Virus record (IMG/VR): IMGVR_UViG_2778261165_000018
Location: 1-11,868 of that record
DNA: 11,868 nucleotides
Direction: 5' to 3' (one strand)
Source of the DNA: a virus
Lineage: Duplodnaviria > Heunggongvirae > Uroviricota > Caudoviricetes
Shown here: in pieces, positions 1 to 2,539 of the stretch
Layout of the letters: each line of letters opens with the position of its first letter
Position numbering within the stretch: the first letter of the stretch is position 1
Notes under the pieces: model-generated
Told to the model about the DNA's origin: nothing
The model's database searches: none
What the model saw: only the letters and a program-made list of their open reading frames with translations
Program-made: the position numbers and the translations under genes

Positions 1-342
1 ATGATGAAAAAAAGTATTCTGGCGTTTCTGTTACTCACCAGTTCTGCAGCGGCGCTGGCGGCACCGCAGGTGATTACCGTCAGCCGTTTTGAAGTGGGTA
101 AAGACAAATGGGCGTTTAATCGCGAAGAGGTGATGCTGACTTGCCGACCGGGTAATGCTTTGTATGTCATCAACCCAAGTACCCTCGTGCAGTATCCTTT
201 AAACGATATCGCACAAAAGGAAGTTGCCAGTGGGAAGACTAAAGCCCAGCCGATTTCGGTGATTCAGATTGATGATCCTAACAATCCCGGCGAAAAAATG
301 AGTCTGGCACCGTTTATAGAACGAGCTGAAAAACTCTGTTAA
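1..342 (+). CDS. yebY: Host DUF2511-family secreted protein (YebY-like), 113 aa with N-terminal signal peptide
   Basis: ATG at 1, TAA at 340-342. N-terminus [22 protein letters not shown] is a typical Sec signal peptide with an AXA cleavage motif. Sequence matches my recollection of E. coli YebY; not verified by search. Confidence 0.75.
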
Positions 343-370
343 TTACCTAAATAGCCTTTTGATTTCCAAT

Positions 371-412
371 AAAAAAACCGCCTCAGTTCTTTCACCAGAA
401 CGGGCGGTTTTT
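371..412. terminator. Intrinsic terminator downstream of yebY, bidirectional in form
   Basis: A7 run (371-377), GC-rich hairpin CCGCC...GGCGG (378-407) with inner stem GTTCT/AGAAC, then T5 (408-412). A-run before and T-run after allow termination in both directions. Confidence 0.7.
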
Positions 413-486
413 AACATTTAAGCTGATGACTACCGCGCTTTTTATTGACCATTTTGCACGCAAACTGGAAAACCTGGCGTCGTCAT

Positions 487-496
487 CTATTCTTAA
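487..496 (+). promoter_or_regulatory. Sigma-S type -10 element (CTATTCTTAA) for the downstream small RNA
   Basis: CTATTCTTAA is a 9/10 match to the RpoS-type extended -10 (CTATACTTAA) and includes the -13 C. Hexamer TATTCT at 488-493 puts the predicted start near 500. Confidence 0.45.
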
Positions 497-499
497 AGG

Positions 500-603
500 G
501 CAAGGCAACTAAGCCTGCATTAATGCCAACTTTTAGCGCACGGCTCTCTCCCAAGAGCCATTTCCCTGGACCGAATACAGGAATCGTATTCGGTCTTTTT
601 TTA
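500..603 (+). ncRNA. sdsR: Candidate SdsR (RyeB) RpoS-dependent small RNA, about 104 nt
   Basis: Predicted start about 500 (GCAAGGC...). Internal palindrome GCATTAATGC (about 518-527), hairpin GGCTCT/AGAGCC (542-559), and terminal hairpin GACCGAATAC/GTATTCGGTC (569-595) followed by T7 (596-602). No ORF with an RBS. I recall sdsR/ryeA lying next to yebY in E. coli and Salmonella. Confidence 0.55.
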
Positions 604-686
604 ATTGTATTTAAAATCAATCAGTTGCAAACGTCTTCCCGAAATTCCCCGAAATTTACTCGAATTTCTGTATTCCGGTCTTTTTT
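586..686. other. Candidate prophage attL region: two core-like 17-mers, IHF consensus site and tandem 10-bp repeats
   Basis: GTATTCGGTCTTTTTTT (586-602) recurs as GTATTCCGGTCTTTTTT (670-686). IHF consensus WATCAANNNNTTR matched at 615-627 (AATCAATCAGTTG). Three 10-bp-phased repeats CCCGAAATTC / CCCGAAATTT / ACTCGAATTT at 638-667. Integrase stop lies 47 bp further in, at 734. Confidence 0.4.
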
Positions 687-733
687 GGTTATATCACAAC
701 CAAAACACATTTAACAATCCATTTACGTTAAAA

Positions 734-1810
734 TCAGAGCAGTAAGTACGTTTTTTCTCGCTCATCAAGATACATTTTTGTTGTCTTCTCCGATGTGTGA
801 CCAAGTAGGCGCTGGGCAAATTCTTCTCCACATGTTTCTTTGTACAATCGTCCAGCCAGACTTCTGATCTCGTGAAAAGTTGGTGGGTTTTCACTGAACT
901 GGATACCTGTTAATTTTCTGGCTGCGACAAATTTTTTTGTCAGGCCATCCGGGTGAATGCTGCCGTCAGGGCTGTTTTTTCTAATCCCGGCACTGATTAG
1001 ATAATCTCCCCGGCTTACCAGGCGGCACCGTTCAACTACTGTACCAAGCCGTAGACCAGCGACAGGAAGGCTGAGTGACAGGGGGATAGCAATCATCATT
1101 CCTGTCTTAATTTGCCTGATGTGGAGACGATCATCATAAATATCACTGAACCGCATATTCGTTATGTCTTCGCGACGTTGTCCTGTTACAAGGGCTAAAT
1201 CCATAGCTAATGGGAACCATGCCGGCAGTTGATCTGCTGCCTCCCTGATGCAGTTGTATGTCTTTAGTTTCAGTCGTTCTCTTGTAACTACTATTTTCGG
1301 TGCTCTTGTTGGCGTTACTGGATTTTGAGATATACGTCCTTCAACAATGGCCTCGCGAAACATATCAGACAACACAGAACGCATTGATCCTGCCATTGTG
1401 TTTTTCCCTCCTTCAATCCACAAATCAAGAAACTCGGCAATATGGCGAGTTGTTATTTCTGTCAGTAAAATCCCTCCCAATTTTTCTTTTATTGTCTCCA
1501 GTTGATTTACCCGAATTTTATAAGTATTTCTGGACACTTTTCTCCTTATAAGAATCGTTTTGTAACGTTCAATCCAGTCTGCCATAGTAAATGAGTCGAA
1601 CCCTTTAAGCTTTTCAATTAAGGCAGCAGGAGAGTAGTTTTTGTATATATAATGATTTGCTTCAATTGCCTGCGCTACTGCATCTCTTCTTGAAATTTTA
1701 CCTAGTGTAAATTCTTCTTTCGTCAGAGGGTTGCGCCAGTAATATGCTTTGTCCCTCCTTCGATATGTTAAGTTTTTAGGCAAATTGGGATCGTATTTTT
1801 TCCGCTGCAT
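734..1810 (-). CDS. int: Lambda-family tyrosine integrase, 358 aa
   Basis: Collinear with lambda Int as recalled: N-terminal arm-binding region ([15 protein letters not shown]), catalytic-region motifs ([40 protein letters not shown]). RBS GGAGAAG 8 nt upstream of ATG at 1810. Confidence 0.9.
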
Positions 1811-2057
1811 GTTTTAACTTCTCCAGTAACGGACTGTCTCTCCCTTGTCGCCCATTAGGCTGATGGTGTGTTATATCGGTATCAACCTTATTTGGGTTGA
1901 TATAGAAAGCCTCCGGAACCACTCTGTAACTCCTCCCGTGTAGTTCAGGTGCAGGATAAATGTTTCCATTCCTTGCCCATCGTCTCAGCGTTGATATTGA
2001 TGGTGGGTTATCCGGATATCTGAGTTTTCCCCACGTTTTGAGTGTCACAAGATTCAT
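1776..2057 (-). CDS. xis: Excisionase (lambda Xis-like)
   Basis: Motif TLRRWARNGNIYPAPELHGRSYRV resembles lambda Xis (ETVRRWVRECRIFPPPVKDGREYLF). 3' end overlaps the int start by 35 nt as in lambda. Start chosen at the ATG at 2057 (RBS AAGAGG 7 nt upstream); the ATG at 2063 is too close to the RBS. Confidence 0.7.
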   Translation of the reverse strand: MNLVTLKTWGKLRYPDNPPSISTLRRWARNGNIYPAPELHGRSYRVVPEAFYINPNKVDTDITHHQPNGRQGRDSPLLEKLKHAAEKIRSQFA

Positions 2058-2163
2058 TGCCATACCTCTTACGATATGACCGCCAGTAAATATACAGAAT
2101 ACTGGCGGGTGTGGTTGATTTTTAATAATCAGCTATGAAGTTCTAATTTGTATATAATGCAAC

Positions 2164-2352
2164 TCACGAGGACAGAAGCTTCTCGCAATTAAAATTTATC
2201 AGCTTTACTTTCTGCTCTCTGGAAACGCCTGCTTCTTTTTTCCCTGAGAGCATTTTTTCGCATTCTGATTTCGTTAATTTAGATTTTGAATATCTTGTCC
2301 AGTTAGTAGGAGTGCCACCTTCTTTTTCAATAGTGGCAGTTATTTTATACAT
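2164..2352 (-). CDS. ydaC: Small prophage protein, YdaC-like, 62 aa
   Basis: ORF MYKITATIEKEGGTPTNWTRY... with RBS GGAGGTG directly upstream of the ATG at 2352. Overlaps the ralR stop by 8 nt. Position between xis and ralR matches Rac as I recall it. Confidence 0.6.
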   Translation of the reverse strand: MYKITATIEKEGGTPTNWTRYSKSKLTKSECEKMLSGKKEAGVSREQKVKLINFNCEKLLSS

Positions 2353-2539
2353 GAACACCTCCATTATTATTTCCAGTAGTTCGTTTATTCCATCTTTCGA
2401 GTGCTTCTTTTTCACTTCCACCATAGCCAGTTCGGGATTCGCATCCGTTGCATTTTGCCCGGTAATATCCTGAAATTGCTTTCACCGTAACAGATGGACA
2501 ACCACAAAACGGACATGGTTTAACATCGTCATATCTCAT
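2345..2539 (-). CDS. ralR: Restriction alleviation protein RalR/Lar (zinc-ribbon), 64 aa
   Basis: MRYDDVKPCPFCGCPSVTV...AKCNGCESRTGYG has a CxxC...CxxC zinc ribbon and matches my recollection of K-12 RalR. In-frame upstream ATGs at 2551 and 2578 would give 68 or 77 aa. Confidence 0.8.
   Translation of the reverse strand: MRYDDVKPCPFCGCPSVTVKAISGYYRAKCNGCESRTGYGGSEKEALERWNKRTTGNNNGGVHV

Follow-up and report, generated by a model that had tools for sequence, protein, structure and literature searches.

According to Williams 2002, as cited in PMC3603311, tyrosine integrases target tRNA and tmRNA genes. Small-RNA genes serve phages as well, namely ryeE/cyaR in E. coli (PMC3603311) and ryeB, which is listed among the sRNA targets of phages (Bobay et al.), and island names in other genera likewise give "RyeB" as the site of integration (Cfr111.52.RyeB). 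The nearest described case comes from Salmonella, where, to the extent that Balbontin 2008 is relayed in PMC7380047 and PMC3333887, the last 23 bp of ryeB are the att site of PhiW104 and of older islands, so that the ryeA/ryeB hot spot mentioned in a first-pass annotation of the DNA studied here is real. Lysogeny by PhiW104 lowered the expression of ryeA and raised that of ryeB (Balbontin 2008, J Bacteriol 190:4075, via PMC7380047). Furthermore, a 2025 paper on Yersinia describes a prophage beside a YebY family gene and leaves the sRNA unmentioned, and in our literature searches no paper dealt specifically with the sdsR site of E. coli.

The stretch of DNA analysed here (11,868 nucleotides, hereafter the window) resembles the Salmonella hot spot in its yebY-sdsR locus and in a 27-bp core that includes the 23-bp att. 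As with PhiW104, the phage rebuilds the sRNA 3' end, while the 5' portion of ryeA is replaced together with its promoter. The window differs from PhiW104 in its host, which is E. coli, in its rac-like early region and lambda/HK022-type Int, and in converting two E. coli-specific 3'-end bases to the enterobacterial consensus; moreover, expression effects were measured in Salmonella, whereas those in E. coli are predicted from the DNA. Insertion at sdsR/ryeB is thus correctly read, yet known in kind, a further example rather than a discovery. What the present analysis adds is a base-level E. coli crossover at the terminator loop, a lambda/HK022-related integrase clade at sdsR in 29 genera, a second, unrelated P2-like integrase family on the same core, and a conserved extra core-like arm element. 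We regard it as highly probable that the window carries the attL of a ~41.4-kb lambdoid prophage, integrated site-specifically by its Int into the 3' end of sdsR/ryeB.

The window matches E. coli Z1323CEC0001 (NZ_CP148507.1) at 100% identity. It opens with yebY (1-342, + strand), a conserved host gene invariably located ahead of sdsR, whose ORF RefSeq lists as a YebY family protein in that genome. A hairpin read by eye at 371-412 (CCGCC...GGCGG, flanked by an A-run and, opposite, a T-run) acts on both strands, terminating yebY on the + strand, up to about 412, and RyeA on the - strand; the 3' ends of K-12 RyeA at +261 to +270 (PMC6610125) correspond to window positions ~371-380. ARAGORN detected neither tRNA nor tmRNA across the whole 11.9-kb window, in agreement with the earlier view that the junction lies at a small-RNA locus instead of a tRNA.

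This small RNA gene, sdsR/ryeB, occupies 499/500-602 (+), as indicated by Rfam, by the fold and by a four-way alignment of att sites. Its identity, already proposed from the letters of the sequence, is secured by the SdsR_RyeB model RF00111, which matches 503-602 (+) with 118.1 bits against a cut-off of 38 (E = 4e-23, model positions 1-100 of 100). The RNA itself starts at 499/500 and not at 503, where the Rfam model begins: the mapped sdsR start, whose sigma-S dependence has been described, equals window position 500 (PMC6610125). A sigma-S type -10 region, CTATTCTTAA (487-496, +), which had been noticed in the first pass, is the same as in K-12 and fits this start, since counted from it there is a C at -13 and TATTCT at -12 to -7; the -13C of the sdsR promoter is backed by mutagenesis (PMC3333887). 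Folding of the complete RNA clearly surpasses that of shuffles (z = -4.5). Both internal hairpins annotated earlier recur in the Rfam consensus (504-515 and 542-559), and the intrinsic terminator at 568-602 (+) was recovered by the terminator scan (RNAfold -15.8 kcal/mol, z = -3.95). Its stem (568-596) comprises 11 pairs including a closing G-U, that is, the 10 Watson-Crick pairs previously counted; it carries a 7-nt loop, AGGAATC (579-585), and is followed by T7 at 596-602. An 89-aa ORF across sdsR (445-714, +) is without a Pfam match and was taken as spurious.

When aligned to the empty yebY-sdsR/ryeA-pphA region of K-12, whose unoccupied site reads GTGTTCGGTCTC, the window is continuously identical through 587, differs at 588 (A vs G), 597 (T vs C) and 604-605, and has wholly lost similarity from 609. 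Since similarity ends in this way at the sRNA 3' end, host sequence does not run on well past 603; such a continuation had been named beforehand as counting against a junction inside the small-RNA locus. The other prophage end, likewise suggested as a place to look for the core, does contain it: in NZ_CP148507.1, attR lies between pinE and pphA and reads ACAGGAATCGTgTTCGGTCTcTTTTTA (in a longer reading ...ttgacgaaaACAGGAATCGTgTTCGGTCTcTTTTTAtctgttaaaagcc...), followed by the K-12-type ryeA promoter and pphA, and is composed of phage-left sequence, ACAGGAATCGT and the host-type G/C variants. A sequenced phage with a 98% identical Int, PP818812.1, provides the uninterrupted attP, ...ttgacgaaaACAGGAATCGTaTTCGGTCTtTTTTTAattgtatttaaaatc..., which equals attR-left plus attL-right and bears the same A/T variants as attL. 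Hence all four sites could be compared (K-12 attB, window attL, NZ_CP148507.1 attR and PP818812.1 attP), with attL being attB-left plus attP-right, and attR being attP-left plus attB-right.

In this four-way alignment the 11-bp block ACAGGAATCGT at 577-587, with a host/phage mismatch on either side (576 and 588), is the sole block identical in all four sites. It consists of the 7-nt terminator loop AGGAATC and the two uppermost stem pairs, and because no other block is shared, the strands were exchanged in the loop and upper end of the SdsR terminator hairpin; the crossover interval 577-587 is thereby shown. The att core at attL extends over 577-603 (27 bp), is repeated directly at attR with two mismatches (588 and 597), and takes in the last 23 bp of sdsR (580-602). 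By origin, sdsR in the lysogen is therefore host DNA at 499-587 and phage DNA at 588-602.

In our model of the insertion, the phage attP duplicates 27 bp from the 3' end of sdsR, and the strands were exchanged inside ACAGGAATCGT (window 577-587). By analogy with lambda and the tRNA-targeting integrases, the two terminator stem arms would be inverted core-type Int sites, the 7-nt loop AGGAATC would be the 7-bp overlap region, and CGAAAT repeats in the phage arms would be arm-type Int sites. We infer the exact cleavage positions, as well as the roles of the core-type, arm-type and IHF sites, from the same analogy. For other integrases, tRNA anticodon or T-loops fill the role assigned here to the terminator loop. 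The likeness to tRNA and tmRNA targets is considerable, comprising a structured and conserved RNA gene, a crossover in a 7-nt loop and a symmetric stem; in both situations the RNA gene is restored by a phage-borne copy of its 3' part. Unlike those targets, the window's target is the terminator of an Hfq-dependent regulatory sRNA, and as the locus is bidirectional, restoring SdsR necessarily truncates the antisense RNA and separates the downstream co-transcribed gene. The ryeE/cyaR site also offers a stable-hairpin sRNA as attB, but its locus and integrase are other than those of the window.

The integrase ORF (734-1810, - strand) reads toward sdsR, as had been annotated, and ends 131 nt from the sRNA. 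Pfam domains and catalytic residues identify its 358-aa product as a lambda-type heterobivalent tyrosine integrase: it contains Arm-DNA-bind_1 (PF09003), Phage_int_M (PF22022) and Phage_integrase (PF00589), and the clade alignment shows no variation at R212, K235, H313, R316, H338 and Y347. Its nearest characterised relatives are HK022 Int, at 41% identity, and the lambda/HK97-type Ints, at 39%. An excisionase (1776-2063, -; 1776-2057 with the RefSeq start; Pfam Exc, E = 6.5e-14) overlaps the start of int. From core to core the prophage measures 41,447 bp and encodes a full set of lysis, terminase, portal, head, tail and baseplate genes with a contractile-tail late region, besides a rac-like early region (ralR/RalA, recET, kilR and ydaT).

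On the phage side of the core, the P' arm of attL (604-733) has no K-12 similarity and is joined to the core in the attP of PP818812.1. By eye, an IHF-consensus match, AATCAATCAGTTG (consensus WATCAANNNNTTR), was read at 615-627 (+), placed like lambda H'; IHF-like matches similar to it occur in 31 of 95 distinct P' arms. Downstream lie three candidate arm-type Int sites on the + strand, phased by 10-11 bp: CCCGAAAT at 638-645, CCCGAAAT again at 648-655 and CTCGAATT at 659-666. This triple xxCGAAAT layout recurs across the integrase clade, with a similar triple in the P arm; the repeat families D1 and D2 link the two arms, and CCCGAAAT-type repeats occur on both P and P' of an attP of ~250 bp. 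The order of the P' arm is the same clade-wide, that is, the core, ~35 nt of AT-rich sequence, often with an IHF-consensus match, three repeats and, at a fixed offset ~70 bp into the arm, a second core copy that recurs across genera. In the window, this degenerate copy of the core right half plus T-run, GTATTCCGGTCTTTTTT (670-686, +; repeat D3), lies 84 bp inside the phage side of the core as GTATTC(C)GGTCTTTTTT and is also present in the free attP. It was found at the same offset, with at least 10 of 13 positions matched, in 47 of the 95 distinct arms but in none of 95 in each of two controls.

Compared with lambda and HK022, the window thus shares an Int of 39-41% identity with three domains and an arm-binding N-terminus, an overlapping Exc-type excisionase, an attP of similar extent with arm repeats on both sides, and an IHF-consensus match beside the core. 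It differs in its core sequence and chromosomal target, in putative core-type sites that fall on the terminator stem, a perfect inverted repeat of 10-11 bp, and in the extra copy of the right core half past the arm-type repeats. This conserved copy at 670-686 is possibly new. It could be an additional core-type Int site, or a back-up terminator shielding int from sdsR read-through. A strong hairpin or terminator at this copy finds no support, as the folds of 630-690 (+) and 596-700 (-) did not surpass shuffles (z = -0.18 and -0.34, respectively).

Could the prophage simply lie downstream of an untouched sdsR, with its junction at ~603-608 and positions 588 and 597 as mere strain polymorphisms? 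Such a reading draws on the fact that both substitutions leave the hairpin intact at equal predicted stability, and that the Rfam consensus likewise has A and U at these positions. It is, nonetheless, most improbable, given that the attR of the same genome holds a second 27-bp core with the K-12-type G and C, whereas the free phage attP has A and T. Furthermore, among the matches listed from IMG/VR, E. coli-type attR copies have G...C in 10 of 10 cases and window-type attL copies have A...T in all save contig L050, whose mixed A...C core indicates that attP variants exist. The phage left arms, moreover, part from the host precisely at 576: of the 35 distinct phage left arms among the IMG/VR matches listed, 33 have an A here, where the host has T, which marks a common left boundary for all these elements.

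Just as hard to credit is the notion that 603-686 is the scar of an earlier element and 670-686 the real attL of the present prophage. It would account for a second core copy 84 bp inside the phage side and for contig L063, which, among the matches listed, lacks exactly the 84 bp between both copies; but in the attP of PP818812.1 the 84-bp segment joins the core to the second copy without a break, and because the free attP already has this copy we reject the scar. In addition, attR fits the first core and not the second, and the offset is constant in distant clade members from other genera. A decayed, immobile remnant fixed in the lineage, whose att structure would be a matter of history, appears unlikely too. 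Its early region is similar to that of the defective rac prophage, and an IS3 element interrupts the integrase in two sister strains (H1 and H2); against this, int and xis are intact in the window with all catalytic residues conserved, the terminase, portal, head, tail, baseplate and lysis genes are all there, the site is occupied patchily, in 4% of E. coli genomes from diverse hosts, and a phage record exists with a 98% identical Int and a precise attP.

SdsR is a sigma-S-controlled Hfq sRNA with reported targets including ompD, tolC and mutS, and it has been described as toxic without RyeA. In the lysogen, sdsR is complete and keeps its own sigma-S promoter, with the right stem arm and U-tract (588-602) provided by phage DNA. 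The first-pass annotation had suspected that the phage might regenerate or alter the sRNA 3' end; it does the former and, slightly, the latter, as the attP of PP818812.1 carries the same A/T variants as attL. Relative to K-12, the RNA has G->A at 588 and C->U at 597, by which the U576-G588 wobble becomes a U-A pair and the tail UCUUUUU becomes UUUUUUU; at both substituted positions the Rfam family consensus has A and U, as in the phage type. Both alleles have an equal predicted terminator energy (-15.8 kcal/mol each), so any effect of the 588/597 changes would have to come from the U-tract. "Terminator repair" through the stem is accordingly unsupported, with the U-tract alone differing between the alleles.

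The antisense partner ryeA/sraC, in turn, is split at the DNA level, in keeping with the earlier suggestion that it might be disrupted. What remains at attL is a promoterless remnant on the - strand (371-608) corresponding to K-12 RyeA nt 33-272 with 4 substitutions, as judged from Rfam RF00101 and the alignments. The K-12 RyeA is 272 nt long and, by the K-12 annotation, starts 38 nt past the sdsR end; the ryeA start site is described in PMC6610125. At attL, neither RyeA's own sigma-70 promoter nor its 5' end was found: the K-12 promoter (TATGGT) and RyeA nt 1-32 are relocated to attR, 41.4 kb off, where, given the distance of 38 nt, the promoter and RyeA nt 1 to ~64 remain and now face into the prophage. 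The strong SraC_RyeA match at 606-462 (-; 179.1 bits) is no contradiction, because the RF00101 model begins at the att boundary and omits the RyeA 5' part. Likewise, pphA, which in K-12 is transcribed mainly via read-through from the sdsR promoter (PMC6610125), lies 41.4 kb away on the attR side of the lysogen. From this arrangement one would expect RyeA to be lost or reprogrammed in the lysogen, SdsR to accumulate earlier or to a higher level, and pphA to be uncoupled from sigma-S.

Some RyeA-like function may nevertheless be kept, if antisense transcription crosses sdsR by read-through from int or starts at a promoter of the phage. Scanning 330-900 turned up no terminator on the minus strand, so that transcripts of int/xis may continue across sdsR in the antisense direction. 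A promoter scan of the same interval gave one minus-strand site, where 0.9 would be expected by chance: a sigma-70-like match, TTTGCA-16-TACAAT (631-604, -), directed antisense into sdsR. This match is not conserved in other arm types and overlaps the IHF-like site, and as a phage substitute for the ryeA promoter it is a weak candidate. In a speculative extension of our model, the int-xis transcript would meet no terminator before running antisense through sdsR, and SdsR, abundant in stationary phase, could then pair with the int 3' extension, leading to decay by RNase III. If this pairing were true, it would constitute a host-sRNA counterpart of lambda sib retroregulation, with excision tied to the growth phase. 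That the sdsR terminator is in this way more than a passive landing pad, either because the second core copy is functional or because SdsR regulates int, seems to us rather doubtful.

How common is such an occupied locus? Among complete E. coli genomes the empty site is intact in 5189 of 5426, while the window Int lies beside yebY in 228, an occupancy of ~4% that is due practically entirely to this Int type. With sdsR rebuilt, the RyeA promoter taken away and pphA detached, such a prophage could represent a lysogenic conversion in ~4% of E. coli, and such conversion by way of host RNA regulation is an idea raised earlier for Salmonella. In IMG/VR, the core occurs in at least 120 contigs in attL, attR and attP forms, and among the matches listed it is followed by ~37 different phage-arm starts. 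Homologues of the window Int (49-100% identity) make up 62 of 69 candidate ORFs in these listed matches, counting those of at least 250 aa that start no more than 600 nt downstream of the core. Also among the matches listed, a separate group of contigs (e.g. L046) carries an unrelated P2-like integrase with the same core.

Beyond E. coli, the clade-alignment search of species-representative genomes yielded 65 loci with an integrase relative. A convergent yebY-sdsR pair lies 70-240 bp past the Int stop in 51 of these, with Int relatives 47-95% identical. These 51 loci span 29 named genera of Enterobacterales, including Escherichia, Shigella, Salmonella, Citrobacter, Enterobacter, Kluyvera and Serratia as well as Yersinia, Rahnella, Pectobacterium, Brenneria, Erwinia and Pantoea. 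At three further loci the core is located at a phage-phage junction, consistent with tandem prophages, and a few clade members (e.g. L144 and L170-L172) are sited elsewhere.

The P' arm of the window prophage, the phage side of attL, carries at 670-686 a duplicate of the right half of the core and its T-run (GTATTCCGGTCTTTTTT), whose offset is constant among P' arms and is kept across genera. This second core copy was present in 47 of the 95 arms, as against none of the 95 controls. In one IMG/VR contig (L063, 576 nt from its start on the reverse-complemented strand), an attL variant, a deletion has removed precisely the 84 bp that separate the second copy from the true core, taking all three of the arm-type repeats and the IHF-like site with it; L063 is probably an excision-defective prophage. 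The int gene itself appears to be interrupted by an IS3 element in two sister chicken isolates (NZ_CP148483.1 and NZ_CP148498.1), as in both the match to window 1-2100 is split, with an IS3-family transposase lying under the split and an integrase fragment annotated there as "Arm DNA-binding domain-containing". If true, this interruption would immobilise the prophage.

Use of the sdsR core is not confined to the integrase family of the window prophage. A P2-like integrase of 354 aa adjoins the same core in four IMG/VR contigs (L046, L037, L047, and L068), and since it gave zero blastp matches with the window integrase and the two belong to separate specific PHROG families, two integrase families have converged on one site. 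Within the clade of the window integrase, some lineages have apparently switched target, four members (L144, L170, L171, and L172; 47-61 % identity) having neither sdsR, nor yebY, nor the core nearby.

Two pairs of integrase loci look like tandem prophages at sdsR, namely L133 and L142 on one contig of Serratia montpellierensis, separated by 41 kb, and L177 and L187 in Serratia aquatilis, separated by 54 kb. In both pairs, the inner integrase gene is followed by a phage-left, core, and phage-right junction in place of sdsR. In a further IMG/VR contig (L013, 580 nt from its start on the reverse-complemented strand), a host terminator variant is matched by the phage core: the left stem arm CCGAAG comes from the host and the right arm CTTCGG is supplied by the phage, so that, compared with CCGAAT/ATTCGG, the changes in the two arms compensate each other.

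The stated host of the phage record PP818812.1 ("Actinobacillus phage vB_Apl-pPE4"; relevant positions 46262-46300 and 46432-47508) looks doubtful, because its integrase is 98 % identical to that of the window prophage, its attP is a copy of the enterobacterial sdsR terminator, and its early genes are E. coli-like.

An 89-aa ORF with a TTG start (445-714, plus strand), covering sdsR and the junction, matched no Pfam family and can almost certainly be dismissed as spurious. Beyond the integrase, the antitoxin sRNA RalA (2168-2346, plus strand; Rfam, 215.8 bits) overlaps ralR (2345-2539, minus strand) as a type I toxin-antitoxin pair. The remaining window is a rac-like early region comprising recT, recE, kilR, ydaT, and ydaV, despite which the prophage does not occupy the rac site.
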